Below are positions 6,333-57,237 of a stretch of DNA of 64,000 nt, one piece after another. Positions within the stretch are counted from its first letter, which is position 1. Each line of letters opens with the position of its first letter. The stretch covers positions 9,789-73,788 of the forward strand of contig JBFMGO010000009.1 in the NCBI GenBank assembly GCA_040752695.1, in the 5' to 3' direction. This DNA comes from a bacterium (GTDB taxonomy: Bacteria > SZUA-182 > DTGQ01). The notes below the pieces were generated by a model. The model had not been told where the DNA came from. It worked only from the letters and a program-made list of their open reading frames with translations, and did no database searches. Made by a program: the position numbers and the translations under genes.

Positions 6333-7253
6333 TTACATCCGGGTGACTTCTCGACGGGATTCAAGCACAAAATTCCAAAGGGCCTGAGCGACCGGCGAAA
6401 GGGTTTTCGAGCGAAGACGAACAAGATAGAAATTTCTGGTGAACCGTGCATTGCGCAAGGGGACAGCTTTCAAAAGGCTGGCTGCAAGTTCACATTTCAG
6501 TGCAGCTCCTGGGATGAGACAGACACCCATGCCTGCCACGGCAGCCCGCTTTACCGCTTCGATGCTGCCCATGTGCGCCACGACCTTGAGCTCTGATTGG
6601 GATATGTTTTTTTGGGAAAATACCCTTTCGATCAATCGCCTGGTCCCAGATCCTTCCTCTCTCATGATAAACGGGAACTCTCTGGCCTGGGCCAGAGTGA
6701 GATTTTCGGAAATCTCAGGGAAATGAATTGGAGAATAGGTGAGCAAAAGCTCATCGTCGCCCAGAATGCAGGAGGCGAATTGCTCTTCATCAGGCATGCT
6801 GCCCACTGCTCCAAGCTCCACTTTCTCCAGGCAGACATCCCGTAAGATACTGGCCGTGTTTCCCGTAATAAGGTGAACAGTGACCTTTGGGTGTACCTTT
6901 ATGAAACCGGATATGATATCCGGCAGGATATAGGCTGCCGGTGTCGTGCTTCCACCAAGCGAAACGCTCCCCTCGATTCTGTTTAAAAAGGTATTGACCG
7001 CAGCAATGGCCTCTGTGCGTGCGGTAATAACTTTTAACCCCATTCGATACAATACCTCACCGGCCGGCGTAAGATGAATCCGGTTCTTACGGCGGTCGAA
7101 TAGTGGTACGCCCAGTTCAGATTCAACGGTTCGAATATGAGTGCTGATTGTGGACTGCTTGATGCCAAGACACAGCGCGGCCTCGGAGAAGCTCCCCAAT
7201 TCTGCACAGGTACAAAAAACTTCCAGATGATGAATGTCTATATTCATCTTCAT
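6333..7253 (-). CDS. LysR-family transcriptional regulator
   Basis: N-terminal HTH 'IHHLEVFCTCAELGSFSEAALCLGIKQSTISTHIRTVESELGVPLFDR' followed by a LysR substrate-binding domain. First gene of the selenium-associated same-strand array. Confidence 0.85.
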   Translation of the reverse strand: MKMNIDIHHLEVFCTCAELGSFSEAALCLGIKQSTISTHIRTVESELGVPLFDRRKNRIHLTPAGEVLYRMGLKVITARTEAIAAVNTFLNRIEGSVSLGGSTTPAAYILPDIISGFIKVHPKVTVHLITGNTASILRDVCLEKVELGAVGSMPDEEQFASCILGDDELLLTYSPIHFPEISENLTLAQAREFPFIMREEGSGTRRLIERVFSQKNISQSELKVVAHMGSIEAVKRAAVAGMGVCLIPGAALKCELAASLLKAVPLRNARFTRNFYLVRLRSKTLSPVAQALWNFVLESRREVTRM

Positions 7254-7367: not shown

Positions 7368-8525
7368 CTATTCGCCTCTCGCATAGGATTTTAATGCATA
7401 TATGGCAATGTCAATCTCCTTCTCGGTATTAAAATAAGACAGGGAAAACCGGACCGTTCCATGCGGAAAAGTGCCCAGGGTTTGATGAGCCAGCGGTGCA
7501 CAGTGCAGCCCTGGTCTTGCGCATATTCTCCACTCGCGGTCAAGGTAATAGGAAATTTCTGAAGCCAATGCTCCCTTCATGTTAAATGAAACCACAGCTA
7601 CCCGCTCGGCTTCGGGTGCGTAAACTTCAATCTCATCAATTTCCCGGAGCTTTTGCAGCAGATACTGCGTTAATTGCTGTTCACGCTCGATGATCTTCTC
7701 TATTCCCTCATCCAGAATGAACTGAATACCTGCGCCTAGGCCAGCCAGTCCTGGCGTGTTTACTGTTCCTGCTTCGAATTTATCCGGTGGAAAATCGGGC
7801 TGAACTGCTTTTTCCGATAAACTGCCCGTCCCTCCGCACATAAAGGGTGCGAGAGCATCAGGATCTTTAACAATGAGAGCGCCGGTCCCCTGAGGCCCGA
7901 AAAGATGCTTATGGCCGGTTATGGCAAAAAGGTCAAACGGCGTCCTGGCTAAATCTATCTTCATTGCCCCTGCACCCTGCGCACCATCGACCAGGAGTTT
8001 CACCCCCTTTGCCCTGCACGTTTCATATATTCCAGCCAGATCAAGCTTCGTGCCGCACACATTGGAGGCTGAAGTAACGGCAGCAAGTCTGGTTTCATTG
8101 CCTATGGCTGCTTCGATCTTTTGAGGAGTGATCAGGCCGTTTCTGTCCCCCTGGACGATTTTAAGCTTGATCCGGCCTTTGTTTTTAAGATGATTGAGCG
8201 GTCTTTGCACTGAATTGTGTTCCATAGAGGTGGTTAAGACTTCCCCCCCCGATTCCGATTCCATGGTTCCGTAAAGGGCTATATTCAGTGCTTCCGTGGC
8301 GTTTTTAGTCAGGATGACTTTTTCCGTTTCGGGAAAATTGAAAAGCTCCCCTATTGCCTCACGGCAGTGATAGACAATCTCTGCCGCTTTGATTGACAAA
8401 AGATGTGAGGACCTGCCCGGATTGGCATTGGTATTTTTCAGGCAATCAATGATAGCCTCAGTCACTGAAAGGGGCTTGGTTCCCGAAGTGGCTGCATGGT
8501 CGAAATAAATTACTTTTTGCTCCAT
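7368..8525 (-). CDS. Class V aminotransferase: cysteine desulfurase / selenocysteine lyase-like enzyme
   Basis: PLP-lysine motif 'ITGHKHLFGPQGTGALIV' and the overall NifS/CsdA-like pattern, 385 aa. Confidence 0.75.
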   Translation of the reverse strand: MEQKVIYFDHAATSGTKPLSVTEAIIDCLKNTNANPGRSSHLLSIKAAEIVYHCREAIGELFNFPETEKVILTKNATEALNIALYGTMESESGGEVLTTSMEHNSVQRPLNHLKNKGRIKLKIVQGDRNGLITPQKIEAAIGNETRLAAVTSASNVCGTKLDLAGIYETCRAKGVKLLVDGAQGAGAMKIDLARTPFDLFAITGHKHLFGPQGTGALIVKDPDALAPFMCGGTGSLSEKAVQPDFPPDKFEAGTVNTPGLAGLGAGIQFILDEGIEKIIEREQQLTQYLLQKLREIDEIEVYAPEAERVAVVSFNMKGALASEISYYLDREWRICARPGLHCAPLAHQTLGTFPHGTVRFSLSYFNTEKEIDIAIYALKSYARGE

Positions 8526-8667: not shown

Positions 8668-9351
8668 TTAAATGGTAATCACCTTGGTTGATGTGAGCAT
8701 AGCTTCTGAAATATCATACATGTTGGAAATTTTGCCTGCGCCGAGCTCTCCGGTGAGATGAAAGTAATTCAGGCAGGTTCCGCAGACCAGAAGCTCAATT
8801 CCTTTTTCTTCGAGCTCCTGCAGATAAGCAAGGGTTCCGGCCCCCTTGATCGTCAATTTTACGCCGCTGTTCATGAAACAGATTGTTCTGGGTTGAACGG
8901 ACAGATCTTTAATGGTGGCTATGAAGGCATTGAGGAGGTTAATGCCCAATTCATCACCGCCCTGCCCAATGCGGTCCCTGGTAATGAAGATCGTTGTGCT
9001 TGTGCCTGCCTGGTAGGGGGAGGTACAGGAGTAGTCTTCCGGATTGAATCCAGCCATCGATTTCATTGATTCTTTTAATTTCATTGATCCTGATGGTTCT
9101 GTGGTTATCACCTGGCCCGACAAATCATTGGCAGGTCCAGCCTGAGTGTATATGTGAAATTCGCCCTTCTGCTCTTCCACACGGTCAATCTGTGCTCCGC
9201 TGCGCTTAAGAAACCTTACTACGTTATCCCTTGATGCTGCGCTGCTGACCATTACCAAAAGAGACTGTCCGCTCGCCTGCTCAAATGCTTCCTTTGTCTT
9301 TACCACAGGTTTGGGGCAATCCAACCCTCTGGCGTCTACGAGTATTGACAT
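8668..9351 (-). CDS. yedF: YedF-like selenium-metabolism protein (TusA-like N-domain with CPxP motif plus DsrE-like domain)
   Basis: N-terminal 'LDCPKPVVKTKEAF' is the TusA CPxP motif. The ~130-aa C-terminal half is DsrE/DsrF-like. Size and architecture match YedF. Confidence 0.65.
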   Translation of the reverse strand: MSILVDARGLDCPKPVVKTKEAFEQASGQSLLVMVSSAASRDNVVRFLKRSGAQIDRVEEQKGEFHIYTQAGPANDLSGQVITTEPSGSMKLKESMKSMAGFNPEDYSCTSPYQAGTSTTIFITRDRIGQGGDELGINLLNAFIATIKDLSVQPRTICFMNSGVKLTIKGAGTLAYLQELEEKGIELLVCGTCLNYFHLTGELGAGKISNMYDISEAMLTSTKVITI

Positions 9352-9522: not shown

Positions 9523-10377
9523 TCACTCCCCGATCCTGTCCCTTCTTGAAGCATGCACAGCCGCACCAAGAGCACCCACCATCTGGGGATTTTCCGGTAC
9601 AATCAGCTTTCTCCCAAGCTTTTTCCCAAGGAGCATGGCCAGGCAGGGATTCAAGGCTCCACCCCCGGCAAAGAGGATCGGATGCCTCAGGCCGACCCGG
9701 TTGACCATGGGCTCTATTCTCTCCACAATAGACTGGTGAATTCCCAGTGCGATGGTGTGGGGATCTTCGCCCTTGGCCAGCAGTGAAATTACTTCCGACT
9801 CAGCGAAAACAGTACACATGCTGTTGATCTTTATGAAACTTTTGGCCATGAGCGCAAAGCTTCCAAATTCAGCGATTTCAATTTCAAAGGAATGAGCCAT
9901 GACCTCGAGAAACTTGCCGGTCCCTGCCGCGCAACGGTCGTTAATGGCAAAATCTTCGAATGAGCCGTTCCCTGCCAGGGCAATTACCTTGGTGTCTTGC
10001 CCTCCGATATCAATAACCATCCGCGCTTGTGGGTGCAGATAGTGTGCTCCAAGGGCAAAGGCCTTGATCTCGGTTATAGTCCGCCCGGCAAGATTCCCAT
10101 GGGCCATGCGGCGGCCATACCCTGTGGCCACAGTATGTTGACAGTCTTTCTCTGCCCGGTCCTTATTCGCCCCGTCTTTCTCTGCGTGGCCCTTCTCATC
10201 CGCCGCGCCTTCATTTGCGCCTTCATTGCCTTCTTTCTGTAAAGCGCGGCGAAGCTTCTTGAGGGGATTTACTCCGCCAGTCATAACCTTGAATTCCACA
10301 ATGCCATTATTCTGATCCAGGATGACATACTTGGCCGTTCGAGAGCCAAGGTCAATACCGATAAAAGCCATTTTCAC
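9523..10377 (-). CDS. BadF/BadG/BcrA/BcrD-type ATPase (HgdC-like activator of 2-hydroxyacyl-CoA dehydratase / double-cubane reductase) with a low-complexity insert
   Basis: N-terminal 'MAFIGIDLGSRTAKYVIL' is the ASKHA ATPase phosphate-1 motif. 'CAAGTGKFLE' and 'FAGGGALN' match HgdC-family motifs. Insert 'EGNEGANEGAADEKGHAEKDGANKDRAEKD' is encoded by a short tandem-duplicated DNA segment. Confidence 0.8.
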   Translation of the reverse strand: MKMAFIGIDLGSRTAKYVILDQNNGIVEFKVMTGGVNPLKKLRRALQKEGNEGANEGAADEKGHAEKDGANKDRAEKDCQHTVATGYGRRMAHGNLAGRTITEIKAFALGAHYLHPQARMVIDIGGQDTKVIALAGNGSFEDFAINDRCAAGTGKFLEVMAHSFEIEIAEFGSFALMAKSFIKINSMCTVFAESEVISLLAKGEDPHTIALGIHQSIVERIEPMVNRVGLRHPILFAGGGALNPCLAMLLGKKLGRKLIVPENPQMVGALGAAVHASRRDRIGE

Positions 10378-10476: not shown

Positions 10477-11751
10477 TCACGATTTAATCCGCTCCAGAAA
10501 GGCTTCAATTCTTGTCTGGATCTGCCCCGCATCTTCGGCGGCATAATCCGTTTCAATCTTGAGCACAGGGATACTGGCCTCTTTCAGAGCCTGTTCAACC
10601 TTTGTGTACTCGACATTGTAGGTATGGCAGAACTGAAGGGTATTGTAAACTACACCGTCAACATGATATTCCCTGGCATAGTGTATGATCTGCTCGGTTC
10701 TCTCATGGTTAGGAGTAAAGCAGGAGCAGTTTATGGACAGGTACCTGCGGGCAAGAGCATCCAGTTGTCCGTTCAAATCGGCCGATGACTCATCGACCAG
10801 GGTCTCGAAGTAGCGCGTTCCCGTACATGCTTCCTCAACAACTACCGATGCCCCCGATGTTTCGATAATATGATGCAGCTTCCAGTTGGGTACGACACTT
10901 GGACAACCGGAAAGCATAACGCGGGGCGCATCTTCGGCAAATGGGCTGATGCCCTTTTCAATTCTATTGTTCAGTTCCGCTTTCAGTTTATTTACTGCTG
11001 CGGTAAATCGCGGGATATCGTCATAGAATGCGACCTGCGAAATTAAAAGGGCATCCTTCCCGCTGATTGGCGAGGGTTGATGCTTGCGGGTTTCGTATAA
11101 GCCGGCCAGTGCTCTCCTTTTATTGTTCATGACTGCTATGGCCTCTTTCACATTCTCGAAGCTGATCTTTGTCCTGCCTGCCTCTTCCAGTTTTTCCATC
11201 AGCCTTTCAATCTCCAGGCGGTATATGCTTTGCCCTGCTTCATTTTTCATATGGGGAACATGCATAACCTGGGTTGGAATGAAATTGTTCAGAACCTCCC
11301 AGGCTTTCTTTTTGCCATCGCAGGTGGTTTCTCCAATGAGAAAATCGGAGGACTCAAAATAAGGGCAAATCCGGGCCAGTTTAAATCCGACGGATGACTT
11401 TATCAATGGACAGATGTTTCGTGGCAGGAATTCTTCCGCTCTGGAAATGGTAAGATCCGCCCCGCCGCACAGTCCGATCGGCAAGCCCCCGGCAGCAAGG
11501 ACTAACTCGTCAGGCACAAAGAGACAAAAAGTGCCAGCTATGAATCCACCTTTGGCCTTATGCTCCAACAGTTCCTTGATGCGCAGGCCATGAACCTCAC
11601 CGATAACAAAATCGAAATATTCCATGGCTTCAGGCCGTTTATCCTGCCTAAGGTAGATGTCGGTATAGACTTGCCCCAGGACATCAAGAAGATTGCAGTG
11701 AGTTTCAAGGTCAATGTTTAAGCTCTTCCATATTTCATCATAAGTGCTCAT
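10477..11751 (-). CDS. 2-hydroxyacyl-CoA dehydratase / BcrC-BadD family protein, single subunit (double-cubane-cluster-protein-like)
   Basis: 424 aa with HgdB/HGD-D family cysteines ('CGGADL', 'ICPLIKSS', 'TTCDGKKK'). Immediately downstream of its ATPase activator. Only one dehydratase-like subunit is present. Confidence 0.7.
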   Translation of the reverse strand: MSTYDEIWKSLNIDLETHCNLLDVLGQVYTDIYLRQDKRPEAMEYFDFVIGEVHGLRIKELLEHKAKGGFIAGTFCLFVPDELVLAAGGLPIGLCGGADLTISRAEEFLPRNICPLIKSSVGFKLARICPYFESSDFLIGETTCDGKKKAWEVLNNFIPTQVMHVPHMKNEAGQSIYRLEIERLMEKLEEAGRTKISFENVKEAIAVMNNKRRALAGLYETRKHQPSPISGKDALLISQVAFYDDIPRFTAAVNKLKAELNNRIEKGISPFAEDAPRVMLSGCPSVVPNWKLHHIIETSGASVVVEEACTGTRYFETLVDESSADLNGQLDALARRYLSINCSCFTPNHERTEQIIHYAREYHVDGVVYNTLQFCHTYNVEYTKVEQALKEASIPVLKIETDYAAEDAGQIQTRIEAFLERIKS

Positions 11752-13356: not shown

Positions 13357-15666
13357 TTACCTTTTCGGGTCTCTCAGTGTCCGGATATCTCCGGTCCGGC
13401 TGGTGAATCCGATAGAGTCGAGGTAATCCAGAATCAAAACGGTGGTCCTTCGGCTCAGGTCAGCTATATTGCTGCGGAAATCTGCAATGGTAAGGCTTTT
13501 TTCCTTTTGTATATATGCTGTTATCATCTCCTTGAGTTTATTCAAAGGCTGACTATGGATGATGGTATCTGGCGTGATGCGGATTAAAACGCCCTGACTT
13601 ACGAGCATCTTCAATAACCTCTCCACCTCCTCTCTATGTTGGGTGTTGCATATGGTGTTATTTTTAATGCTGCTTTGATGGGTGTTGTTCCGGGTGCCGT
13701 TTTGAGAGTTATTATGGGTACTATTGACAATGTTCTGGTAAAGGTGACTTATCTTTAATGGCTGGTATCCGCTGGATAGAAACACTCTTTCCATCATAGT
13801 AATAATTTCCTTCTGCCAGGAATTTAATGACGGCCTATGATCGGCCAGCCTGACATGAGGACCTTCCAGCGCTATGGCCTGACGCGCTTCGAGGTCCCCG
13901 ATCAGGCAATGAAAGAGCCGGATATCCATCTCTCCTGATGTCCTTGCCCTGAGCATCTCTTTGCCCATACCCTTTTCAAGGGGATTTTGGCTATGAAATT
14001 TTTGCAGAGTGTCTGTTATTTTCCTTTTGATGCTCGCAGCTTGCTTGCTGGCAAAAAGAAATTCTTCTTTATTCTTATCAATATTCTTATCAATATTCTT
14101 ACCAATACCGTTACTATTACTATAACTGCTCCCGTTAGCATTACCGTTCTTCTTATCAATATCTTTATCAAGGCAATAGAGAACGCCTTTGTTTTTTAGC
14201 CGGGTCAGGATATCGTTAAGCTCGATATGAGTAAGCGCAGTCTTCCTGAGCAATTCGGTTTTCGTGCAAAGGGTGAAGGTATGTCGTGAGATTATCTCAC
14301 TGACGAAGCTCTCGAACCTTCCCTGCTCCAGGAGTTCAAGCCGGGCTATTCTGCCTGTACCCTTCGAAGTGACGCTTGTATCTTTCAGGACGCTGCCTGC
14401 GCCCTTCGAGATACTGCCTGCGCTCTCCGAGATACTGTAACGCCTGGGATGGGCATCAAGGATAACACCTCCGCCAATAGTATGCTGGGGGCTGAGAGAT
14501 CGGATAATGAATCTATCGAATACCAGAGGCGACGCCTTTTCCTCCAGCCTGAATTGGACAATAGCCTGCTCGCCGGGCTGCATCTTGTCTCTATCCATGA
14601 GAATTACTCTGGCTATGAGCTCGGTGGTGCCGGTATACAGGCGTACTCTGGTCCTGTTGACCAGGGGAGAGGCATTTGATTCCAGGTACCGGAGCCTGGC
14701 ATCCAGTATGCCGGTTGGAAGCAGCAGTGAATCCGGCGGTGCGATGGTATCACCTCTTTTAATCTGAGAAGTGCTGATACCGGCCAGGTTAAAGCCGACC
14801 CGCTGCCCTGTCCGGGCCTCTTCAACCCATTGGTTATGTACCTGAATACCACGGATCTTGACCTTGCAGCCCGCAGGATAAATCATTGCCGCAGATCCGG
14901 GCCTCACATTTCCATCCACAAGCGTGCCGGTAGCTATCGTGCCGTAGCCTGCCATGGTAAAAACCCGGTCTACCGGAAGCCGGAATTCACCCTTAAGTCT
15001 GGTTTTTTCGACTTTGCCGATGAGTTCCGTAAGAGCCGTGTTTACCTGGCCAATTCCCTCGCCGGTCCGGCATGAGCAATCGATTATCGACGTTTTCCGG
15101 AGAAAGGTCGGCTCAATGAGCTTGGCAACTTCCTCGTGAACCAGTTCCAGCCAGTCCCTGTCCACCAGATCGACCTTGTTTACCACGACAAGCCCGAATC
15201 TGATTCTCAGCAGTGAGAGAATATCGAGGTGTTCTCTGGTCTGAGGCATGGGACCATCATCGGCTGCTATGACCAGAATGACTATATCGACTCCTGATAT
15301 TCCCCGCAGCATGTTCTTGATAAATTTCTCATGCCCCGGACAATCGATAATACTTACCACGTGCCCGCTGGGGAGCCGATAGGGGGCAAATCCTGGTTCT
15401 ATCGATATGCCCCGAACCTTTTCCTCTTTCAGCCGGTCCGTATCCACGCTGGTAAGGGCTTTAGCCAGAGCGGTCTTGCCGTGGTCGATATGCCCGGCCA
15501 GGCCTATGGCAACATTCCGCACTACATCTCCAGCTACTTTTTGCGCCTGGCCGCTGGACCCATTTTGCCCCAGACCGCTGGATCCATTCCGCGCCAGGTA
15601 GCTATATCCACTCTGTCCCAAGTATCGAACTCCATTCTGTGTCAGGTCCGCAGTTCTATTCTTCAA
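13357..15666 (-). CDS. selB: Selenocysteine-specific translation elongation factor SelB (with N-terminal extension and an internal low-complexity insert)
   Basis: G-domain motifs 'AGHIDHGKT', 'DCPGHEKF', 'VVNKVDL'. Domain order EF-Tu-like then C-terminal winged-helix region. 769 aa versus about 620 typical. Insert '[30 protein letters not shown]' derives from tandem 'ttcttatcaata' repeats near 14080-14115. The true start may be downstream of 15666. Confidence 0.85.
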
Positions 15667-15718: not shown

Positions 15719-15822
15719 GAGGTTCAAAAGAGAGGGTAAGGGGAATCGAACCTCCTACGGCCCTTGCACAGGCCGACCAGCGGATTTGAAGTCCGTGGGG
15801 CACACCAGTACCATTACCCTCG
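15719..15822 (-). tRNA. selC: tRNA-Sec (anticodon UCA), selC; ends approximate
   Basis: Minus-strand sequence contains 'GGACUUCAAAUCC' (anticodon arm core identical to E. coli selC), a long variable arm 'CGGCC-UGUGCAAG-GGCCG', the T-loop 'GGUUCGAUUCC' and an 8-bp acceptor stem 'GAGGGUAA/UUACCCUC'. Sits immediately upstream of selB. Not folded with software. Confidence 0.72.
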
Positions 15823-20860: not shown

Positions 20861-20892
20861 TCTGAGCCAAAGCCAGAATCCATTTCCCACTC
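20861..20892. repeat. Copy of dispersed repeat 'CGTCATTCTGAGCCAAAGCCAGAATCC'
   Basis: Imperfect inverted repeat 'ATTCTGAGC...GCCAGAAT'. Same family as above. Confidence 0.6.
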
Positions 20893-38781: not shown

Positions 38782-40512
38782 TCACAGATTCCACGTGCCC
38801 TTCAGTTCAGCCCGGAGCTTATTTTGCAGCCGGATCAACCGCCTCCTTTTCAGGAAGGTAGTCCATCGATCGTAACCGTTTTTAAGAGCGGGGCGGGGTA
38901 ATCGCAGGACAAAATAAAAAAGCATGCCTATCTTCCTGAAGAAGAGAATCAGCATTTCCTGCATTCCCTTGAAACTTCCACGGCCAGTCAGTGGTGTTTT
39001 CTCCCTCTCCAGCGATTTTTCCATTTCTTCCCCTCGACGGCTCAGGCTGTCCTTGGTCGATACGAACCAGGCGTCTTTTAAAAGCGTCTGTCTGATGATG
39101 ATAAAATGATCGATTTCCCGTTTAATTTTTTTCTGAATATCCTTCGACGGCTTACGGTTCAAGAGGTTCGTGAGGTACTTAACCACAAATTGGACCCGCT
39201 GAAAAACTTCAGACTTCATCCGTAGAGGGAAATCCTGATGCTGGCTTTTTTCCAGCTTTTTTCTGTACTCTATGATCAGGTCCAGCTCAAATGGATTGAA
39301 GCGATTAAACCTCTCTCCCAGTATTGAAGGAAGGGGAATAAAGGTATCCACCACCTCCTGGATCTGGTAAACTTGAGCTAAAGCCGTCAGGATCTCAACC
39401 TGGCGCAGCACCTGGCTCCGGGTGGGGGTAAGCCTGCTTTTGCGCAACGCGTCCAGAGTCTCCCCCGGGTCCGGAAGTATCAGCGAGGTTTTATCCAGGC
39501 CGTAGGCATCCCAGAAAGCAGGCATTTCCCTTACCTTATCTTCCGATTCTCCCTGCTCCCATGCCTTTCGGTCAGGATACAATTTCAATATTTGATCTAC
39601 ATTCATTCCGCAAATCAGGATCACATGCAGCTTGATCTCGCCGAGAGTCTCCCTGAGGTTTTTGGGGATAGGTCCAAGCCCGTCAGTGATGACCAGGATC
39701 TCTGCCTTCACCATGCAGGGATCTTGGCGGATGTCCTCAACTGCTTTCAGAATAGCCTTCCCGACTTCGGTTTGATGGCAATCCACCGTATGAAGATGGG
39801 CTACATGACGGATAATCTTTTTTATATCCTTGGTCTTCTCTCCCCGGATCAGCGGACTGACCTTATCGGTAAATGAGCGAAAATAAATCTGCGGATTTTC
39901 CGGCTGAACCTGCCGCAGGTACTCTAAGGCAATCGCCTTGGAGGCGTAAAGCTTATTCATTTTTTCTCCGCTCATTGACGAAGAATTATCGAACAGTACA
40001 TACACCTTTTGCGCTCTATTGACTTCCTGATCCTGCCCGTATACCAGATCGGATACTGAAAGGATCTTGTCTTCCGGAGCCTCGAAATCACGCCGGTTCA
40101 ATTCCCGATTAATCAGCTTCTTAAAGAATATGATATCTTTGTCATAGATAAGGAGTTCTCGCGGCAAGATAGTGGCGATCTGGCTGATTGCTTCGATGAC
40201 GCCAATCTTCATGTGGTCGGATAACGGTTGTTTGTGCTGGGGAGACACAGATTGATCTTTTGCTTCTTTTTCTAAAAGTGACGGCGATCTTTTCCGGCTC
40301 AGGAGAGAAACCAATAGACTTTTGGTTGGATATAAGCTTTGACTGGAAAAGAGGCTGCGGGCAATGTAGAAGATCTCCAGAATTTCCTTCGAGAGACATT
40401 CCTTGCCCAGCATGGCCAAGTACCAGTCCGGCTCAAAAAACGCCCAATGGTCTATCAATTCGTTCATAGTCTCTATTCCCTTTACCAAAAAAGGAGTTAT
40501 AAAAAAAGCCAT
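38782..40512 (-). CDS. von Willebrand factor A (VWA) domain protein, about 560 aa
   Basis: MIDAS motif 'VYVLFDNSSSMSGEKM'. The rest is unassigned. The true start may be the internal 'MNELIDHW'. Confidence 0.5.
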   Translation of the reverse strand: MAFFITPFLVKGIETMNELIDHWAFFEPDWYLAMLGKECLSKEILEIFYIARSLFSSQSLYPTKSLLVSLLSRKRSPSLLEKEAKDQSVSPQHKQPLSDHMKIGVIEAISQIATILPRELLIYDKDIIFFKKLINRELNRRDFEAPEDKILSVSDLVYGQDQEVNRAQKVYVLFDNSSSMSGEKMNKLYASKAIALEYLRQVQPENPQIYFRSFTDKVSPLIRGEKTKDIKKIIRHVAHLHTVDCHQTEVGKAILKAVEDIRQDPCMVKAEILVITDGLGPIPKNLRETLGEIKLHVILICGMNVDQILKLYPDRKAWEQGESEDKVREMPAFWDAYGLDKTSLILPDPGETLDALRKSRLTPTRSQVLRQVEILTALAQVYQIQEVVDTFIPLPSILGERFNRFNPFELDLIIEYRKKLEKSQHQDFPLRMKSEVFQRVQFVVKYLTNLLNRKPSKDIQKKIKREIDHFIIIRQTLLKDAWFVSTKDSLSRRGEEMEKSLEREKTPLTGRGSFKGMQEMLILFFRKIGMLFYFVLRLPRPALKNGYDRWTTFLKRRRLIRLQNKLRAELKGTWNL

Positions 40513-40619
40513 CTGCCTCCCGTGTGGAGGTTTACAGATGGCTTTCTATCAATGTCGGATATTTATCCTCTTATTAAGGATAGAGAATCCTCTGAGGAAA
40601 TGTCAAATTTTTTTCGCTC

Positions 40620-41087
40620 CTAGTGCCACATATAGCCCATCATATCGATAAACCGGTTATTCATCTGTTTGAGCAATTCACTGATCTCGCAGATGATCAC
40701 TTTGGATATCTTAAACCCTGCAAGCGGAGCTGCCTCGATAAACCGGTCAAAATCAATTTTGCTGATGACCATGAGCTGGGTATCCTCGACGGCCTCGGCC
40801 GTAGCCGAGTGAACTTTCTGTGTCAGGAGGGAGAGCTCACCGAAGAAACTCCCTTTCTTCAGGGTGGTAAAGGTCATCTTCTCCCCGGTCGAGACCAGCT
40901 TGCTGATCCGTACCGACCCGTCGACAACTACGTAGAGCTCCTTGCCGATCTCGTTCTCCCTGATAATCGTCTCTCCTACCTTAAACTTTTGCGGACGTGC
41001 AATTTCGGCGATCCGTTCTAACTCTGAAATACTCAGGTCTTTAAACAGCTTGATTTCCTTTAATTGTTCAATATCAAACATTGTCAA
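40620..41087 (-). CDS. Cyclic-nucleotide-binding (cNMP) domain protein
   Basis: 'FGELSLLTQKVHSATAEAVEDTQLMVI' matches the cNMP-binding beta-roll signature. 155 aa with no DNA-binding domain. Confidence 0.7.
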   Translation of the reverse strand: MTMFDIEQLKEIKLFKDLSISELERIAEIARPQKFKVGETIIRENEIGKELYVVVDGSVRISKLVSTGEKMTFTTLKKGSFFGELSLLTQKVHSATAEAVEDTQLMVISKIDFDRFIEAAPLAGFKISKVIICEISELLKQMNNRFIDMMGYMWH

Positions 41088-41126: not shown

Positions 41127-43823
41127 TCAATCTCCCTTGGCTAATCTTTCTATCCTTACTGCACATACTTTCAGTTCCGGAATCTTGGCCACCGGATCGA
41201 TCGCTGTATTGGTTAAGGTATTAGCTGGGGACTCGCGAAAATGGAAGGGAAGGAATACCACTCCTTGAGAGAGTCTGTCAGTAATCAGGGCCTTCACCCT
41301 GATCTCTCCCCTTCTGGACTTTACTAAAATTTCCTCCTCGGAGAGGATATTGATGGATTTGGCATCCTGCTCACTGATTTCCAGATACCCTTCAGGGCAA
41401 ATTTCATCCAAGGGAGCCACCCGCCGGGTCATCGATCCCGTGTGGTAATGAAACAGCCTTCTTCCCGTAGTCAGAGTAAAGGGATATTCCGTATCGGCTA
41501 TTTCAGCCGGAGAGGAGTATTCAACAGGTGTAAACTTGCCCAGTCCCCGGGAGAATCGGCGATGATGCAGGTACTTTGTCCCCTGGTGCTGAGGAGTAGG
41601 ACAGGGCCACTGCAACCCTCCCTCTTCCTCTATTCTCTTGTAGGTTATCCCTCCATAGATAGGAGTCAATTCGGCAATCTCCTGCAAGATCTCCAAAGGG
41701 GAGGAATAGTGCATGGGATAGCCCATTGCGGTGGCGAGATCACAGATGATCTGCCAGTCACTCCTAGCCTCTTCAACCGGAACAAGGGCTTGATTCATCT
41801 TCTGGACCCTTCGTTCCGTATTGGTAACCGTACCTTCCTTTTCGGCGAAACTCACTGCCGGCAAAACAACATCCGCCAATTGAGCGGTCTCTGTTAAAAA
41901 TATATCCTGAACAACGAGAAAGTCAAGAGATTCGAGCTCTTTTTTTACTTTATTCAGATCGGGATCGCTCAGCATCGGATTTTCACCCATGATATAGAGT
42001 CCCTTGATCTCGCCGGTCAGTGCTCGATGAAACATCTCGGTGACTGTCAAACCCGGTTTATTCGATAAAGAGACACCCCATTTATCCTCAAACCTGAGCA
42101 AAATCTGAGGATCAGCAACGCTCTGATAGCCTGGAAAGACATTGGGCAGGCATCCCATGTCACACGCGCCCTGGACATTATTTTGCCCCCTGAGCGGATT
42201 GACGCCGGAATTTTCCTTGCCCACATTACCGGTCAGCATGGCCAGATTCGCTACAGCCAAAACGTGATTGGTGCCGGAGCTGTGCTGAGTAATACCCATG
42301 GCATAAAGGATGGTGGCTGTTTCTGCCCGTGCATAAGCCCGGGCAGCCTCCTGGATCAATGACCCAGGAACGCCTGTTATCTGCGATACCTTCTTGAGGT
42401 CGTATTGGTCAATGACCGCCTTGAAGGCTTCGTACCCTTCGGTACGCTCCTCAATGAAGCGCTGATCTGCAAGCCCCTCGTCTATGATCACTTTCATCAT
42501 GCCATTCAAGAGGGCCACATTGGTTCCTGGCCGCAGTTGCAGCCAGATATCGGCTATGCGGGTCAGTGCGATCGGCCTCGGATCGGCTACGATCAGGGTG
42601 CTTCCGTTTTTCCTGACTGCCTTCTTAACCTGAAGGCCGACAATGGGATGAGCTTCGGTTGTATTGGAACCGATAACCAGAATTGCCTGAGCCTGGCCAA
42701 TTTCGGCGATTGAGTTGGTCATGGCTCCACTGCCAAACGCTGTGGCTAGACCAGCCACGGTAGAGCTGTGTCAAAGCCTGGCGCAGTGATCGACATTGTT
42801 TGTGCCTAAAACCCCCCTCACAAATTTCTGAAAGAGGTAATTTTCCTCATTGGTACACCGGGCCGAACTAAGACCAGCCAGGCTGTTATTTCCGTGCTGG
42901 TTCTTGATCTGCTGGAATTTTTTGGCCACAAGGTTTAAGGCATCATCCCACGAAGCTCTGACATGTTGGCCATTCTTTTTGATAAGAGGATATTTCAAGC
43001 GGTCAGGATGCTGAACAAACCCATAGCCAAATCTTCCCTTGCTGCACAGATAGCCTTCATTTAAAGAAGCGCTATCCGAATGAAGATTGACGATCTTGTT
43101 CTCCCTGATATGAAGTGTCAGATTACAGCCGCATCCGCAGTAAGGGCAGACCGTCTTAACCCATTTCGACTGCCATTTCCTGCCCTGCTGTTTGGAAGGC
43201 TTGGCAGTCAAAGCCCCTACGGGACAGGAAGCAAGGCACTGGCCGCAAAACTCGCAGTTGAGCTTTCGATCGTAAGGGGTGCCGATTCTGGTTTGAAATC
43301 CCCTGCCAATAAACCCGATAGCTGCAACGCCCTGCACTTCATCGCAGACACGCACGCATCGGCCGCACAAAATACACTTGCTGTTGTCCCGCTCGATAAA
43401 AGGATTGGTATCATCGATACTATCGGTCCTCTTCTCACCCGCAAGCCTGGTATCTTTTAATCCGTATTGGTAGGCCAGGTCCTGAAGCAGACAATCACCG
43501 GCTTTTTCACAAAACATGCAGTCTTGAGCATGATCGGAAAGAAGCAGCTCAACAATCAGCTTCCGGTAGGTATCGATCCTCTCCGACTCGGTCCGGATTT
43601 TCATACCCGCAGCGATAAAGGTAGAGCAGGCGGGAACGAGTTTGGGGAGCCCCGCAACCTCCACCAGGCACAGACGGCAGGCACCAAAAGGGCTCAAATC
43701 CCGGCAGTCGCACAGGGTGGGAATCAAGACCGTATTTCCCCTGGCAACCTCCAGAATGGTCTTTCCGGGACTGGCGGCGATTTCTTTTCCATTCATGGAT
43801 ATGTATATTTTTTTTTCTTCCAT
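41127..43823 (-). CDS. fdhA: Formate dehydrogenase catalytic subunit, selenocysteine-containing (NuoG-like N-terminal 2Fe-2S/4Fe-4S domains plus Mo-bisPGD domain); read through the in-frame TGA at 42771-42773
   Basis: Two ORFs in the same frame are separated only by TGA. The context '[25 protein letters not shown]' is the canonical FdhF/FdhA selenocysteine site. N-terminus has 2Fe-2S ('[16 protein letters not shown]') and 4Fe-4S ('[13 protein letters not shown]', '[12 protein letters not shown]') clusters. Confidence 0.85.
42742..42758 (-). promoter_or_regulatory. Bacterial SECIS-like hairpin (GUGGCU-GGUCU-AGCCAC) 13 nt downstream of the Sec UGA
   Basis: Perfect 6-bp stem with an apical loop containing GGUC, as in the E. 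coli fdhF SECIS apex (UGCA-GGUC-UGCA). Spacing from UGA is typical. Confidence 0.6.
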
Positions 43824-43835: not shown

Positions 43836-45683
43836 TTATATAATTGCCTGGGCCGGGCAATTCTCGATACAGGTTCTGCATCGGATACATCGGTCCTTGT
43901 CAATCGCAGCCACCGTCTTGGGTTTCCATTCAACTGCACCTGCCGGACACGCCTTTTGGCAAAGACCGCATTTTTTGCACAGTTCCTGAGCTACCTCAAA
44001 CTTTACCAGGGCGCTGCAAACGTGGGCCGGGCATCTTTTCTCCAGAATATGGGCCCGATATTCGTCCATAAAATACCGGATAGTGCTCAAGACCGGATTC
44101 GGGGCTGTCTGACCAAGGCCGCACAATGCTGTGGATCTTATCCCTTCCGCCAGCTCTTTGAGTAGTTCCAGATCGGACTCTTTTCCGTTTCCTTCGGTGA
44201 TTCGAGTAACAATCTCGAGCATCCTTTTGGTTCCGATACGGCAGGGGACACACTTTCCACAGGATTCATTTTGAATGAATTCCAGGAAAAACCGGGCTAC
44301 ATCGACCATGCAGTTGGCCGCATCCATGACCACCATCCCGCCGGATCCCATAATGGCTCCCAGGCTGATCAGAGAGTCATAATCTATGGGAGTATCGAGG
44401 TATTCCTCCGAAATACAGCCACCGGAAGGGCCTCCCAGTTGCACCGCCTTGAATTTCCTTCCCCTCGGAGGCCCTCCGCCAATACCGAAAACGACCTCCC
44501 GCAGGGTTATCCCCATCGGAACTTCCACCAGCCCGGTATTATTGACCTTGCCAGCCAGGGCGAATATCTTTGTCCCTTTACTTTTCTCCGTGCCGATTCC
44601 TGCATACCACTGAGCGCCTCTGGAGATAACAAAAGGTATATTAGCAAAGGTTTCAACGTTGTTAATATTTGAAGGCTTACCCCATAAGCCCTTGTGAGCA
44701 GGGAACGGAGGCCGCGGACGGGGCATACCTCTTTTGCCCTCTATTGAAGCCATGAGAGCGGTTTCTTCTCCGCAGACAAATGCTCCTGCTCCTTCTTTTA
44801 TGTGCAAATCAAAAGAAAAATCTTTTCCCAGGATGTTCTGGCCTAAAATTCCGAGCTCCTGTACTTGGGATATGGCTATTTTGAGGTTGGATATAGCTAA
44901 AGGATATTCAGCTCTGGCATACACGTACCCTTGGCTGCATCCTATGGCATACCCCGCTATAAGCATCCCTTCCAGCACCTGATGGGGATTGCCTTCCAGA
45001 AGGCTCCGGTCCATAAAGGCTCCGGGATCCCCTTCATCCGCATTGCAGATCAAATACTTAGGCTCTCCTTTGGCCTTTGCGCAAAACTCCCACTTGAGAC
45101 CTGTTAAAAATCCCGCACCACCCCGGCCACGGAGGCCCGACTTTTTCACCTCCTCAATGACCTGCTCTGGGGTCATTTCAAAAATTACTTTGAGAAAAGC
45201 ATCATATCCTCCAACACTGATGTAATCCTCTACATTCGTGGGATCAATGAGGCCATTGTAGTGAAATACCACCCGCTTTTGATTTTTATAAAAGGGAACA
45301 TCATAAGTGTATACATACTTCTGTTTTGTCTTTGGGTCTTTGTATAACAGCTTTTCGATAAACTCGCCCTTCTCAATGGTCCGCTCAATGATATCAGGCA
45401 CATCATCTACCGATACCTGATGGTAAAAGATATCATCCGGCAATATAACCACAATCGGGCCTTTTTCGCAAAAACCATGGCACCCAGTCTTTTTAATGCT
45501 TACCGTGTTTGATAGTCCTCTTTTTTCTATTTCTTCTTGAAAAGTCTGGATGAGTTTTCCGCTGCCAAAGGCAACACATCCTGTACCTTTACAAACACTG
45601 ATAATCTTTTTATTCTGATCCTTTTGTCCTCTTAAGGCTTCCCTTAAACTGACAAAATCCTCTCTTGAGTTAATCCTTCTCAT
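43836..45683 (-). CDS. NuoF-like NAD(P)H-binding flavoprotein subunit (FMN, thioredoxin-like 2Fe-2S N-domain, C-terminal 2x[4Fe-4S] ferredoxin); FDH beta / HndC-like
   Basis: 'GRGGAGFLTGLKW', 'ICNADEGDPGAFMDR', 'ESCGKCVPCRIG', and C-terminal 'CKKCGLCQKACP...CIRCRTCIENCP'. Confidence 0.85.
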   Translation of the reverse strand: MRRINSREDFVSLREALRGQKDQNKKIISVCKGTGCVAFGSGKLIQTFQEEIEKRGLSNTVSIKKTGCHGFCEKGPIVVILPDDIFYHQVSVDDVPDIIERTIEKGEFIEKLLYKDPKTKQKYVYTYDVPFYKNQKRVVFHYNGLIDPTNVEDYISVGGYDAFLKVIFEMTPEQVIEEVKKSGLRGRGGAGFLTGLKWEFCAKAKGEPKYLICNADEGDPGAFMDRSLLEGNPHQVLEGMLIAGYAIGCSQGYVYARAEYPLAISNLKIAISQVQELGILGQNILGKDFSFDLHIKEGAGAFVCGEETALMASIEGKRGMPRPRPPFPAHKGLWGKPSNINNVETFANIPFVISRGAQWYAGIGTEKSKGTKIFALAGKVNNTGLVEVPMGITLREVVFGIGGGPPRGRKFKAVQLGGPSGGCISEEYLDTPIDYDSLISLGAIMGSGGMVVMDAANCMVDVARFFLEFIQNESCGKCVPCRIGTKRMLEIVTRITEGNGKESDLELLKELAEGIRSTALCGLGQTAPNPVLSTIRYFMDEYRAHILEKRCPAHVCSALVKFEVAQELCKKCGLCQKACPAGAVEWKPKTVAAIDKDRCIRCRTCIENCPAQAII

Positions 45684-45811: not shown

Positions 45812-46288
45812 TTATTCGTCATGGTGCGATAAACAAGCCAAGATATTATCTATCTTTTGTGGCGTTACCTTATCATAATAAATGTCATCAACCACCATCA
45901 CCGGAGCTAAAGCACACGCACCCAGACAGCCTACCGTCTCTAAAGTAAACGTACGGTCTAAAGTTGTTTCTCCTTCATCTATCTGCAATTTCTCTTTCAG
46001 CACGTCTAAAACGGTCTTACTCCCTTTTACATGACAGGCTGTCCCCCGGCAGACCTTTAGTACGTGTTTTCCTCTCGGCTGAGTATAAAACTGAGCATAA
46101 AAAGTGATAACCCCATAGATTTCACTCGACGGAATGTTTAACCTTTCGACAATCAGGTCAACAGCAACTTCCGGAATATAGGTATAATGTTCCTGTATTT
46201 TTTGAAGGACGGGGATGAGCGCACCTTTCTTATTCTGATAGTCCTTCAATAATTCCCTTGTATAGGTTAGATTTATGTTTTCATCCAT
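45812..46288 (-). CDS. NuoE-like 2Fe-2S thioredoxin-fold subunit (HndA-like)
   Basis: 'VCRGTACHVKGS...CLGACALAPVMVVDD' is the NuoE cluster-binding pattern. Confidence 0.8.
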   Translation of the reverse strand: MDENINLTYTRELLKDYQNKKGALIPVLQKIQEHYTYIPEVAVDLIVERLNIPSSEIYGVITFYAQFYTQPRGKHVLKVCRGTACHVKGSKTVLDVLKEKLQIDEGETTLDRTFTLETVGCLGACALAPVMVVDDIYYDKVTPQKIDNILACLSHHDE

Positions 46289-46912
46289 GCTGATACCCTC
46301 AATTTAGCCAACCACTACGACCTTCAAGGTCGGCGATTCTATCATAAAACGCTGTTATTTTCTTATTTTCGGTAACTATTAAAAAAACAATAGATTACTC
46401 AGCGCATCTTTTCTGCAAGATAAGCTTTTTGGTAAAATAGAACTCTATTCTATCAAAAAAAGATCGAATGTAAAGAAAAAAATCAACAGGTAGCAATATT
46501 ACTGAATTTTAAAAGCCTTACCATATCTTATTAAGGTTATGACTATCCCTTCTTACATGGTATTTTTTTCTCTGCTCCGGCTGTAGTCCTGATTCTTCCA
46601 AAATGCCTGTGGACTAGCTGAGAGGGGACTTTTCCTTCTTTTATACACAAGAATGACCGAAACTTAAGATTTTCTCATACCGATAATTTTCGCGGAAGCC
46701 ACGCTGAATTTCTACACCCTGTACACGAGATATACCCTTTAAAAAATAAATATTTCCCTTCTTTTTTTCGATAAATACTATCCGAAGAAATGCCGATACA
46801 TCTTTAGCAAAATCACTACTGGAGTCTGGTTTTTTTAAGGCTTTGCGCTGTCTCATGATTCTCGCGGGTATGAGATAAATTCTGGAACTTTAAAGCTCAA
46901 AGGTCCCTATAA

Positions 46913-47512
46913 GTGATGATAAACGATAATATTAATTTTCAGCTCAGAAACTTACAGCTTTTTCGAAATGGCTCTGAACTTGCCTCCCTTCGCCTGGAAT
47001 ATTACAAAGTTTACGGTCTGCTTTTCGAATCACCCTCTGAAAAATTAAAAGACCTTCTCTCCATCGAGGAAAACATGGAGATATTACATGAAGAATATCT
47101 GAATTTATTTATCCGCCCCAATACGAAATATGTATTCCCCTGTGGCTCAGCCTATAAAAAACAGAGGAGGAAAAAGAGGAACATCGTCCTTTTTCTTGCA
47201 GGCAATGGCGTGGACAGACAACGGCCTGATGATCATGTCCTGGTTGGTTTGAACTACATGCGGTTTTTGATCGAAAGGGAAAAGCGTCAGTGGCTAAGAA
47301 AAAACTCTCTGGAAGCCCTGGATCTTCTGCATCAACAACAGGATTATCTTCTTGGCCACCTTTACTGGTTGCCGGATTTATGTGCCGAAATACTGAAGAA
47401 AACGACTTCCCGGTTCTATCGTAATGCAGCCTTGAATCTCGAGAGTTTTTTTCAGCTCGAAAAACTTCTTTTGGAAATCATCCTCCTGAAAAGGGCAAGC
47501 ATGATGAATTGA
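46913..47512 (+). CDS. Possible TorD/DmsD-family redox-enzyme maturation chaperone
   Basis: 'YLNLFIRP...PDDHVLVGLNYMRFLIE' resembles the TorD-family core ('PDDHIGVELEFM'). Divergent from the FDH operon across a 620-bp AT-rich intergenic region. Confidence 0.4.
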   Translation: MMINDNINFQLRNLQLFRNGSELASLRLEYYKVYGLLFESPSEKLKDLLSIEENMEILHEEYLNLFIRPNTKYVFPCGSAYKKQRRKKRNIVLFLAGNGVDRQRPDDHVLVGLNYMRFLIEREKRQWLRKNSLEALDLLHQQQDYLLGHLYWLPDLCAEILKKTTSRFYRNAALNLESFFQLEKLLLEIILLKRASMMN

Positions 47513-49164: not shown

Positions 49165-49686
49165 TTGAGAAACAATAAACTCACGCACTTCGACGAGCAT
49201 GGGCAGGCCCGCATGGTGGATGTCAGTTCTAAAAGCGCAACAGCCCGCGAAGCCAGAGCCCGGGGCACCGTCTTCATGCTGCCCGAGACCCTCGATGCCA
49301 TCATGCACGACGGGATAAAAAAGGGGAACGCCTTAGAGGTGGCCAAAATCGCCGGTATCATGGCCGCCAAACGCACTGCATCTCTTATCCCGCTCTGTCA
49401 TCCGATTCCTTTAACTGCCATCGATCTTTCTTTCTCTCTCGATGATACCCAAAGCTCAATCACCATAGAGTCCATGGTCAAAACCACGGGACAGACCGGA
49501 GTCGAAATGGAGGCCCTGGTCGCGGTTTCCGTTGCAGCACTCACCCTCTATGACATGTGCAAGGCCGTGGACCGGGCCATGAGCATTTCCAATATCCTTC
49601 TGACGAAAAAAAGCGGAGGTAAAAGCGGAACCTTTATCCGCGAGGAAAACGGAACGTGTAGCCAAAAGGAAGGAGCAGAGCCTTGA
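49165..49686 (+). CDS. moaC: Cyclic pyranopterin monophosphate synthase accessory protein MoaC
   Basis: 'ASLIPLCHPIPL' and 'TGVEMEALVAVSVAALTLYDMCKAVD' are MoaC signatures. Confidence 0.85.
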   Translation: MRNNKLTHFDEHGQARMVDVSSKSATAREARARGTVFMLPETLDAIMHDGIKKGNALEVAKIAGIMAAKRTASLIPLCHPIPLTAIDLSFSLDDTQSSITIESMVKTTGQTGVEMEALVAVSVAALTLYDMCKAVDRAMSISNILLTKKSGGKSGTFIREENGTCSQKEGAEP

Positions 49687-50541: not shown

Positions 50542-51204
50542 CTAAAATTCAACCATGAACCCGATGGAAAGAAGTAATCCCTTAGGATCGAGATACCCGG
50601 TCCCCTCCTCACCCTCGGGCAATTCCTCATCAGCATAGTCCGCATTGAAAAGCTTCAGATATCTGGCCTCAAATACCAGATAGCTGTTATTGACTCCATA
50701 TTTTTGATCGAAGTTGAAAGCATCGTCAGCAGCCAGAGCATCAAGCAAAAGGCGAATCCCTGCCACTGCATGATACCCGGCCTCGTTCAGATAGGTGGGC
50801 TGAATGTCTTCAGCCAGTTCTAATCTGCCTGTTCTCCCGTAGACATAGTCAATTCCTCCGCCCAGATAGGGAACGAAAAACTGGTCCTGACTATAACGCA
50901 TGGCATAGGTCATGCTCAGCCCCACGGGGATCAGATAGACGGACCATTCACTGGCCGTAACATGTACATAATCCGCACTGATTCCAAGCTCAATATTTTT
51001 CATAACTTCCTTATTCAGCCTCAATCCTCCAAAGGCGGAATAGCCCTTACCGAAGGCCGTACTCCACTTATCGTTATCCGAAGGCCGGTAAAACCCGCCT
51101 CTTAGTTCCAAGGAGGTTCCCTTCCTGATGGATTCAGCCCTGGCCACTGTCGGTGCACTGAAAAGGAGAATGAATGCCACGAAAGCCACTACCTTCTTAC
51201 TCAT
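50542..51204 (-). CDS. Outer-membrane beta-barrel-like protein (OmpW/OmpA-like small barrel) with its own RBS and signal peptide; in frame with the upstream giant ORF
   Basis: Perfect SD 'AAGGAG' 6 nt before ATG 51204. 'MSKKVVAFVAFILLFSAPTVARA' is a signal peptide. Alternating amphipathic strands, C-terminal '...SIGFMVEF' (terminal Phe beta-signal). Confidence 0.5.
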   Translation of the reverse strand: MSKKVVAFVAFILLFSAPTVARAESIRKGTSLELRGGFYRPSDNDKWSTAFGKGYSAFGGLRLNKEVMKNIELGISADYVHVTASEWSVYLIPVGLSMTYAMRYSQDQFFVPYLGGGIDYVYGRTGRLELAEDIQPTYLNEAGYHAVAGIRLLLDALAADDAFNFDQKYGVNNSYLVFEARYLKLFNADYADEELPEGEEGTGYLDPKGLLLSIGFMVEF

Positions 51205-57200: not shown

Positions 57201-57237
57201 GAATCAGAAAAAGACAGGTATTTTTTCGCCTACTCAT
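51205..57237 (-). CDS. Giant (about 2000 aa) repeat-rich surface protein: N-terminal about 50-aa 'YGxRxxxxG...VVWxD' repeats, repeated 'WIDxNxDG' calcium-binding-like modules, C-terminal two-component-regulator-propeller (Reg_prop) repeats and a hydrophobic segment. The reading frame continues without a stop into the 50542-51204 ORF
   Basis: Start at 'MSRRKNTCLFLILVSVFLLVFTFCPKIKAAG' (ATG 57237). Four copies of 'VWIDxNGDGxYSxxEK(Y/F)DM'. Propeller repeats 'ILWIGTSLGLSKFD', 'NLYVGTPQGLSKYN'. Then TM-like 'GWIIWAVGIGFLSLLGIEIAF'. Confidence 0.6.

Follow-up and report, generated by a model that had tools for sequence, protein, structure and literature searches.

A predicted selenocysteine-type formate dehydrogenase catalytic subunit encoded across an in-frame UGA in a bacterium of the DTGQ01 lineage

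The window examined here is a 64,000-nucleotide stretch of DNA from a bacterium of the GTDB lineage SZUA-182; DTGQ01 (assembly GCA_040752695.1, contig JBFMGO010000009.1, positions 9,789 to 73,788 of the forward strand), and the subject is fdhA, a minus-strand gene at 41127..43823 that encodes a formate dehydrogenase (FDH) catalytic subunit; all coordinates are counted from the first letter of the window. The listing of open reading frames (ORFs) presented this region as two minus-strand ORFs, one of 350 amino acids that starts with ATG (43823..42771) and one of 543 amino acids that starts with GTG (42758..41127), joined by a TGA at 42773..42771. The sequence across the junction reads GAT CAC TGC GCC AGG CTT TGA CAC AGC TCT ACC GTG GCT GGT CTA GCC ACA GCG. 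Read as a single gene, fdhA has 898 codons and encodes a subunit of the BfuA/FdsA type; its in-frame UGA (42771..42773) is codon 351, stands in a UGAC context and is a candidate selenocysteine (Sec) codon. The fdhA ATG at 43823 has a Shine-Dalgarno sequence, AGGA, 7 nt upstream, and the gene is terminated by a second TGA at 41129..41127. A 17-nt hairpin, GUGGCU-GGUCU-AGCCAC, follows the in-frame UGA on the same strand (42742..42758), genes for NuoF- and NuoE-like subunits lie directly upstream of fdhA, and a locus with selB and selC lies 27 kb away. An earlier note on this DNA had proposed that the two ORFs are one gene joined at a Sec site, that the hairpin, which starts at the 13th nucleotide after the UGA, is a selenocysteine insertion sequence (SECIS) of the fdhF type, and that the product belongs to an NAD(P)H-linked, possibly bifurcating, FDH; these proposals were borne out, the bifurcation as a prediction from architecture. 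We are highly confident that 43823..41127 on the minus strand is one gene, that it encodes the catalytic subunit of a cytoplasmic soluble FDH, likely of the class termed Type 1 Fdh-Bfu, and that its UGA is read as Sec by way of the hairpin.

The read-through product of 898 amino acids carries, in order, the Pfam domains Fer2_4 ([2Fe-2S]), NADH-G_4Fe-4S_3 (the His-ligated [4Fe-4S] of NuoG), Fer4_Nqo3 (2x[4Fe-4S]), Molybdop_Fe4S4, Molybdopterin and Molydop_binding, the last three for a Mo/W-bis-pyranopterin guanine dinucleotide (bisPGD) site. The joined product scored 893 bits against the NCBIfam model TIGR01591, 'formate dehydrogenase subunit alpha' (cutoff 666), and it aligned end to end, over residues 5-891, with Rhodobacter capsulatus FdsA (6tg9_A, 744 bits) and over its catalytic part with an F420-dependent FDH (9t1s_L, 748 bits). 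Codon 351 stands opposite the 'X' of 9t1s_L (CARL-X-HSATVVGL), which is read as the selenocysteine of that enzyme, and opposite Cys386 of 6tg9_A; H352 is conserved and lies opposite His387 of 6tg9_A, and R545 lies opposite Arg587. Cys386, His387 and Arg587 are reported to be the active-site residues of FdsA (Radon et al. 2020). An equivalent Cys-His-Arg triad is quoted in PMC8965080. These alignments demonstrate that the gene is continuous across the UGA and that the UGA is homologous to the position of the Sec or Cys metal ligand. The predicted active-site residues of the fdhA product are U351, H352 and R545, and Sec351 would be the sixth ligand of a Mo or W bis-pyranopterin cofactor, beside His352 and Arg545. 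A cysteine-codon paralogue, whose absence the earlier note had wanted checked, was looked for throughout the window, and no FDH paralogue of any kind, Cys-type included, was found there; the sole match was fdhA itself.

The hairpin consists of a 5′ arm GUGGCU (42758..42753), a loop GGUCU (42752..42748) and a 3′ arm AGCCAC (42747..42742), all on the minus strand, with six Watson-Crick pairs and an optional G-U closing pair; 12 nt separate the UGA from the first stem base and 18 nt separate it from the GGUC. With the G-U closing pair, which ViennaRNA added, the stem has 7 bp and the loop is the triloop GUC; the 21-nt hairpin folded at -9.7 kcal/mol (z = -2.82; 3/200 shuffles as stable), although the folding energy of a single sequence is modest evidence for a SECIS. 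In the bSECIS model (PMC13188914), an upper stem of 4-16 bp carries a loop of 3-9 nt that has G in its first two positions and then G or U, the apical loop lies 16-37 nt from the UGA, and the minimum free energy (MFE) is at most -7.5 kcal/mol. The hairpin falls within all four constraints: it has a 5-nt loop on 6 bp, or a 3-nt loop on 7 bp when the G-U pair is counted, the loop is GGUCU, the spacing is 18 nt and the MFE is -9.7 kcal/mol.

The site also shares its register with fdhF of Escherichia coli. The annotated E. coli genome gives TGA CAC GGC CCA TCG GTT GCA GGT CTG for fdhF, with 18 nt before GGTCT, and in both genes the UGA-to-GGUCU distance is 18 nt, the loop is encoded by Gly-Leu codons, the hairpin lies in the coding sequence directly 3′ of the UGA and the active-site motif is of the same type (CARV-U-HGPSVAGL around Sec140 in E. 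coli). The stems differ, being GGUUGCA/UGCACC in E. coli, where a U is bulged, and a perfect GUGGCU/AGCCAC here. E. coli FdhH itself is unlike the fdhA product, in that it is a 715-amino-acid stand-alone catalytic subunit of the formate-hydrogen lyase complex and has no NuoG-like N-terminus. The alignment with FdhA/FdhF selenoproteins that had been suggested in the earlier note thus placed the UGA at the ligand position and in the same register as E. coli fdhF. Taken together with the covariation described below, these data support the identification of the hairpin at 42758..42742 as a bacterial SECIS.

Orthologues were then compared. A scan of 185,579 species-representative genomes gave 80 orthologous loci (L001-L080), with relatives 47-60% identical to fdhA, and 79 orthologous sites were compared, of which 58 have TGA at the homologous position, the window's own site among them, and 21 have Cys (TGC or TGT). 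A perfect 6-bp stem was present at 55/58 TGA sites and at 1/21 Cys sites (Fisher p = 1.3e-14, uncorrected for shared ancestry), and the GGTCT loop was present at 52/58 and 4/21, respectively (Fisher p = 5e-9, likewise uncorrected). The mean MFE of the 23-nt segment was -11.3 kcal/mol at TGA sites versus -4.4 kcal/mol at Cys sites, and the apical helix was 99.1% paired across the 58 TGA sequences versus 62.7% across the 21 Cys sequences. At four TGA sites the loop GGUCU is replaced by GGGCU, and the stem is intact in 4/4. Within the 58 TGA sequences, compensatory double changes were seen in 4/6 pairs, with GC, CG, UA and AU all occurring at one pair; the covariation score was reached by 0/500 shuffles, and shifting the partner columns reduced pairing to 30-57%. 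Both the TGA and the Cys sets encode essentially the same peptide, T-V-A-G-L-A, and the difference in the hairpin is therefore not explained by the protein motif alone. This co-occurrence of hairpin and UGA is the decisive evidence for a SECIS, and the structure is kept only where a UGA has to be recoded. The earlier note had asked whether the hairpin might be missing from orthologues; the counts above give the opposite result.

None of 597 confirmed relatives in species-representative genomes exceeds ~60% identity to the fdhA alpha subunit. The closest of these (58-60% identity) come from unrelated phyla, namely Aerophobetes, Actinomycetota ('Solincola') and unclassified bacteria, and this scatter points to sparse sampling of the lineage or to horizontal transfer of the operon. 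On one contig of a Desulfobacterales metagenome-assembled genome, two Sec-type fdhA genes lie ~2.8 kb apart (L065:2425-2486 and L065:5230-5291), each with its own SECIS.

Several observations weigh against the SECIS and the Sec reading of fdhA. A 62-nt stretch that includes the lower stem was no stabler than its shuffles (z = -0.89); this fold energy was rejected as evidence, and the 21-nt hairpin and the comparative data were used instead. The possible lower stem itself (42766..42760 with 42730..42724), found by ViennaRNA and Rfam, was just 61.8% paired in the TGA set and 44.2% paired in the Cys set, and with such weak conservation it is not claimed as a functional element. The Rfam search proposed in the earlier note was successful in part: RF01989 (SECIS_3) matched the extended region 42718..42776 on the minus strand over all 59 positions of the model (E = 1.3e-9 for 501 nt searched), but its 46.6 bits stay under the gathering score of 63; when the whole window was scanned at gathering thresholds, tRNA-Sec was the only match and no SECIS was returned. 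The hairpin looks and works like a member of SECIS_3 but misses Rfam's own criterion; its loop is GGUCU where the consensus has AGUCU, and its lower helices contain non-canonical positions. By our own translation, the SECIS_3 consensus encodes V-U-H-G-P-T-V-A-S-L, an FDH Sec site. Furthermore, the hairpin overlaps the conserved V-A-G-L-A codons, and its conservation is partly at the level of the protein, a point that the Cys control addresses; however, the orthologues in that control comparison are not phylogenetically independent. Finally, neither selA nor selD is encoded in the window, so that a full Sec pathway is presumptive for this genome.

The window does encode two components of Sec decoding. 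The tRNA-Sec gene selC, with anticodon UCA, lies on the minus strand at 15732..15821 (RF01852, 58.9 bits, gathering 47; also called by ARAGORN), and selB, for the Sec-specific elongation factor, lies directly downstream on the same strand at 13357..15522. SelB has 721 amino acids from the GTG at 15522, which is preceded by GGAG 6 nt upstream; the listed selB ORF of 769 amino acids opens at a TTG (15666) that is probably upstream of the true start. Against TIGR00475 the protein gave 325 bits (cutoff 242), and its domains are GTP_EFTU, SelB beta-barrel, SelB-wing_2 and SelB-wing_3. When joined ORFs, upstream extensions and read-through extensions of supported genes were inspected, no other TGA-interrupted or plausibly TGA-extended gene was found in the window; fdhA is therefore the only identified in-window user of selB/selC, as the earlier note had held. 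In the proposed mechanism, SelB loaded with Sec-tRNA-Sec would bind the hairpin at 42758..42742, with its GGUC loop 18 nt past the UGA, and would hand selenocysteine to the ribosome at the UGA in place of termination, and selenium would in this way be inserted into the fdhA product.

SelB is unusually long, at 721 amino acids versus 614 in E. coli SelB, with ~60 additional residues separating domain III from the first winged-helix region that was matched and ~30 before the last. Four kilobases from selB, a selenium-associated cluster of three genes occupies 6333-9351 on the minus strand. It encodes YedF (9351..8668; TIGR03527, 189 bits, cutoff 110), a cysteine desulfurase (8525..7368; TIGR01977, 422 bits, and 320 bits against selenocysteine lyase SclA, under that cutoff) and a LysR regulator (7253..6333) that, at 248.6 bits, just missed the cutoff of 250 for 'selenium metabolism-associated LysR'. 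An IS91-family (Y2) transposase gene (4912-6051, minus) adjoins this cluster. Between YedF and SelB, also on the minus strand, are a BcrAD/BadFG-type ATPase (10377..9523) and a protein like the D-component of 2-hydroxyglutaryl-CoA dehydratase (11751..10477). A thioredoxin-reductase-like flavoprotein is encoded on the plus strand at 20766-21986 (TIGR01292, 292 bits, cutoff 343); it has an N-terminal extension of ~100 amino acids and aligns like the C-terminal half of AhpF, and no in-frame TGA extension was found for it.

Upstream of fdhA, the NuoF- and NuoE-like subunits named in the earlier note are encoded on the same strand. The NuoF-like flavoprotein BfuB (615 amino acids, 43836..45683, minus) has a gene that ends 12 nt upstream of fdhA, and it is preceded by the gene for the NuoE-like [2Fe-2S] protein BfuC (158 amino acids, 45812..46288, minus; PF01257, 178 bits). 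BfuB carries the Pfam domains 2Fe-2S_thioredx (21-101), Complex1_51K (FMN/NAD(P)H), NADH_4Fe-4S (N3-type) and 2x Fer4 (566-614). Its best match is HydB of the Acetomicrobium mobile NiFe-Bfu enzyme (7t2r_B, 871 bits), with which it is 61% identical over 587 amino acids and has 22/24 Cys conserved, including C551, C556 and all cluster motifs. HydB proteins 7q4v_B and 8a6t_B followed with 812 and 760 bits, NfnB (9n5u_B) with 734 bits and Thermotoga maritima HydB (7p5h_B) with 719 bits, whereas the non-bifurcating FdsB proteins 6vw7_B and 6tg9_B gave 412 and 371 bits; the scores against bifurcating HydB/NfnB are thus ~2x higher than those against FdsB. The FdsB matches end at residue 542 of BfuB (37-542 for 6vw7_B and 126-542 for 6tg9_B), indicating that FdsB is without the C-terminal ferredoxin domain. 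BfuC matched HydC of bifurcating hydrogenases best among PDB chains (7t2r_C, 165 bits, and 8a6t_C). Many of the 80 orthologous loci, from several phyla, have the same gene order, nuoE-nuoF-fdhA.

This arrangement is known from the Bfu family of Schut et al. 2022 (PMC9304861), in which the BfuBC core carries these clusters and, in Type 1 Fdh-Bfu, the pterin site is in BfuA, where the FDH pterin domain comes after Fe-S domains of the A1-A5 type; Carboxydothermus hydrogenoformans is an example of Type 1 (PMC9304861). In the same work, non-bifurcating homologues (R. capsulatus Fdh, Nqo and the S. wolfei hydrogenase) are without the B2-B5 clusters, and BfuB clade 49 contains both the NiFe-Bfu of A. 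mobile and the example of Type 1 Fdh-Bfu. Judged by its predicted domains, the operon fits Type 1 Fdh-Bfu, with the extra clusters in BfuB, an adjoining BfuC gene, and Fe-S and pterin domains fused in BfuA. Electrons from formate, or towards CO2, would cross five Fe-S clusters in the NuoG-like N-terminal part of the fdhA product and then reach the BfuB/BfuC module with its FMN and NAD(P)(H) site. The additional N-terminal [2Fe-2S] and C-terminal 2x[4Fe-4S] domains of BfuB set bifurcating Bfu enzymes apart from non-bifurcating FdsB/NuoF. Because of these extra Fe-S domains, Type 1 Fdh-Bfu is the most likely assignment for the complex, and such an enzyme would couple formate/CO2 simultaneously to NAD(P)+ and ferredoxin. 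The suggestion of the earlier note that the enzyme is NAD(P)H-linked and possibly bifurcating accordingly draws support, as a prediction, from the architecture and from the BfuB-type NuoF-like subunit (871 versus 370-412 bits). On its domain architecture, joint coupling of formate/CO2 to NAD(P) and ferredoxin is slightly more likely than not. We infer, and do not read from the sequence, actual selenium insertion, the identity of the metal (Mo or W), the specificity for NAD or NADP, the ferredoxin coupling and the physiological direction.

The only rival that remains live concerns this last step. The enzyme may be a Sec-FDH that is plainly NAD(P)+-dependent, resembling FdsABG, and that neither bifurcates nor uses ferredoxin. 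The alpha subunit does align end to end, at 744 bits, with the non-bifurcating R. capsulatus FdsA, some HydABC-like enzymes of syntrophs do not bifurcate (PMC7311640), and no biochemically characterised Type 1 Fdh-Bfu was found either in PMC9304861 or in a literature text search for the term, a further point against the coupling proposed here. Known non-bifurcating beta subunits, however, are without the extra Fe-S domains (PMC9304861, PMC7311640), whereas the BfuB encoded here has all of them, retains 22 of the 24 Cys of the structurally characterised bifurcating HydB and matches bifurcating HydB/NfnB with roughly double the score that it gives with FdsB. A non-bifurcating enzyme is on this balance a serious but somewhat doubtful alternative.

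The characterised enzymes nearest to this complex each share part of its architecture. R. capsulatus FdsGBA (6tg9) and Cupriavidus necator FdsABG have the same alpha architecture with NuoE- and NuoF-like partners, and the R. capsulatus Cys386/His387/Arg587 triad aligns with U351/H352/R545; unlike the complex predicted here, they are NAD+-dependent, oxygen-tolerant, non-bifurcating Mo enzymes with Cys in place of Sec. HylCBA-FdhF2 of Gottschalkia acidurici is an FDH shown by experiment to bifurcate, containing W and Se and passing electrons from formate to NAD+ and ferredoxin (PMC9304861). It is likewise a selenoprotein FDH with a BfuBC core, but it is of Type 3, with FdhF2 separate from the NuoG-like HylA, whereas the two are fused here in 898 amino acids. 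A. mobile NiFe-HydABCSL (7t2r) provides the closest solved BfuB and BfuC, with all cluster-ligand Cys motifs in common; its third substrate, however, is H2, handled by NiFe hydrogenase subunits, and its BfuA is without a pterin domain. With the Type 1 Fdh-Bfu class the operon shares the same three-gene unit, the class itself being predicted. Fdh3 of Thermococcus onnurineus was considered as an analogue and rejected, as it has another architecture, an NfnI-like NADP subunit and Cys (PMC8965080).

The remaining rivals deny that fdhA is a Sec gene at all. If the TGA were a genuine stop, the locus would yield two polypeptides, a 350-amino-acid Fe-S protein and a 543-amino-acid pterin-domain protein from the GTG at 42758. 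A mechanical ORF call does give these two ORFs, with the GTG 12 nt past the stop, and UGA serves as a normal stop in this genome. However, the split would fall inside the active-site motif and both halves would lose the metal ligand, and the separate start context for which the earlier note had advised looking is not there: no Shine-Dalgarno sequence precedes the GTG at 42758 on inspection of the sequence, and that codon is buried in the hairpin stem. Moreover, all Cys orthologues (21/21) are continuous through this position, the hairpin accompanies the TGA in 55/58 orthologues, and selB and selC are present; two independent polypeptides are, on this evidence, very improbable. A pseudogene, in which a Cys-type FDH was inactivated by a TGY-to-TGA nonsense mutation, is to be given equally little credence. 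A single base change turns TGC or TGT into TGA, and Cys-type orthologues exist (21/79); but the gene is otherwise intact over its 898 codons and strongly conserved, the hairpin and GGUCU are perfect here and mostly lost in Cys forms (1/21 and 4/21), a C comes directly after the codon in 58/58 TGA orthologues, the window's included, and Sec machinery is encoded nearby. A genome-wide reassignment of UGA to Trp or Gly (code 4 or 25), for which nothing specific speaks, was rejected on the stop-codon usage of the window and has a negligible probability, since TGA terminates 11/37 domain-supported genes, fdhA included, no other long gene of the window is interrupted by TGA, and ARAGORN gave a tRNA-Sec and nothing resembling a suppressor tRNA that would read UGA as some other amino acid.

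The operon lies in a window of 47.4% GC. Downstream of fdhA on the same strand (38782-41087) are genes for a cyclic nucleotide monophosphate (cNMP)-binding protein and a 576-amino-acid VWA-domain protein. The cNMP-binding ORF (41087..40620, minus) is in the same frame as fdhA and lies 13 codons past the fdhA TGA, the frame staying open in between; that stop TGA is not followed by a SECIS-like hairpin but is spanned by an imperfect stem, and the in-frame position was treated as coincidence. Genes for the maturation of molybdoenzymes are also close by. A TorD/NarJ-family chaperone is encoded at 46913-47512 on the plus strand, divergent from the FDH operon, and an FdhE-like protein with four CxxC motifs is encoded on the plus strand at 30341-31264, where the match to TIGR01562 is weak (58.9 bits, cutoff 188). 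The cNMP-binding gene was found beside fdhA in 1/80 orthologous loci and the VWA, TorD-like and FdhE-like genes in 0/80 each, and none of the four was counted in the system. A MoaC gene lies at 49165-49686 on the plus strand, 2.9 kb upstream of the first gene of the operon (46288), and no FdhD was found in the window. The operon is preceded by an AT-rich intergenic region of ~620 nt (46289-46912) with a promoter-like site at 46474..46447 (TTTACA-16-TAGAAT, extended TG); no molybdenum cofactor (Moco) or other riboswitch was found in this region, where Rfam matches were at chance level only. Farther away are genes for large surface-type proteins: one of 1287 amino acids at 174-4037 (plus; beta-helix, MopE metal-binding, cohesin and dockerin), one of 2259 amino acids at 50542-57321 (minus; GEVED, Reg_prop and a C-terminal outer membrane protein (OMP) beta-barrel) and one of 648 amino acids at 57543-59489 (minus; Reg_prop and Big_5).

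The finding is correct and well supported but ordinary: fdhA is a gene of a textbook kind, and its subunit architecture belongs to a published predicted class. Bacterial Sec decoding has its founding example in the selenocysteine of FDH and the accompanying SECIS. FdhA is described as the most widespread bacterial selenoprotein family (PMC13188914). For annotation, the finding is a correction: ORF callers that take UGA as a stop split the gene into a 350-amino-acid Fe-S protein and a 543-amino-acid molybdopterin oxidoreductase, and this split hides a complete FDH and understates both the formate/CO2 metabolism and the selenium dependence of the organism. The gene adds one more example of FdhA and one more to the predicted Type 1 Fdh-Bfu class, and the pattern in the 79 orthologues, in which the SECIS is kept with UGA and decayed with Cys, offers a criterion that needs only sequence for telling Sec- from Cys-type FDH in metagenomes. 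The chances are evenly divided on whether this fused three-subunit Sec Fdh-Bfu, from a lineage without a close sequenced relative, truly bifurcates or confurcates; if it does, it would be a candidate for the member through which the Type 1 Fdh-Bfu class is first characterised, both biochemically and structurally.

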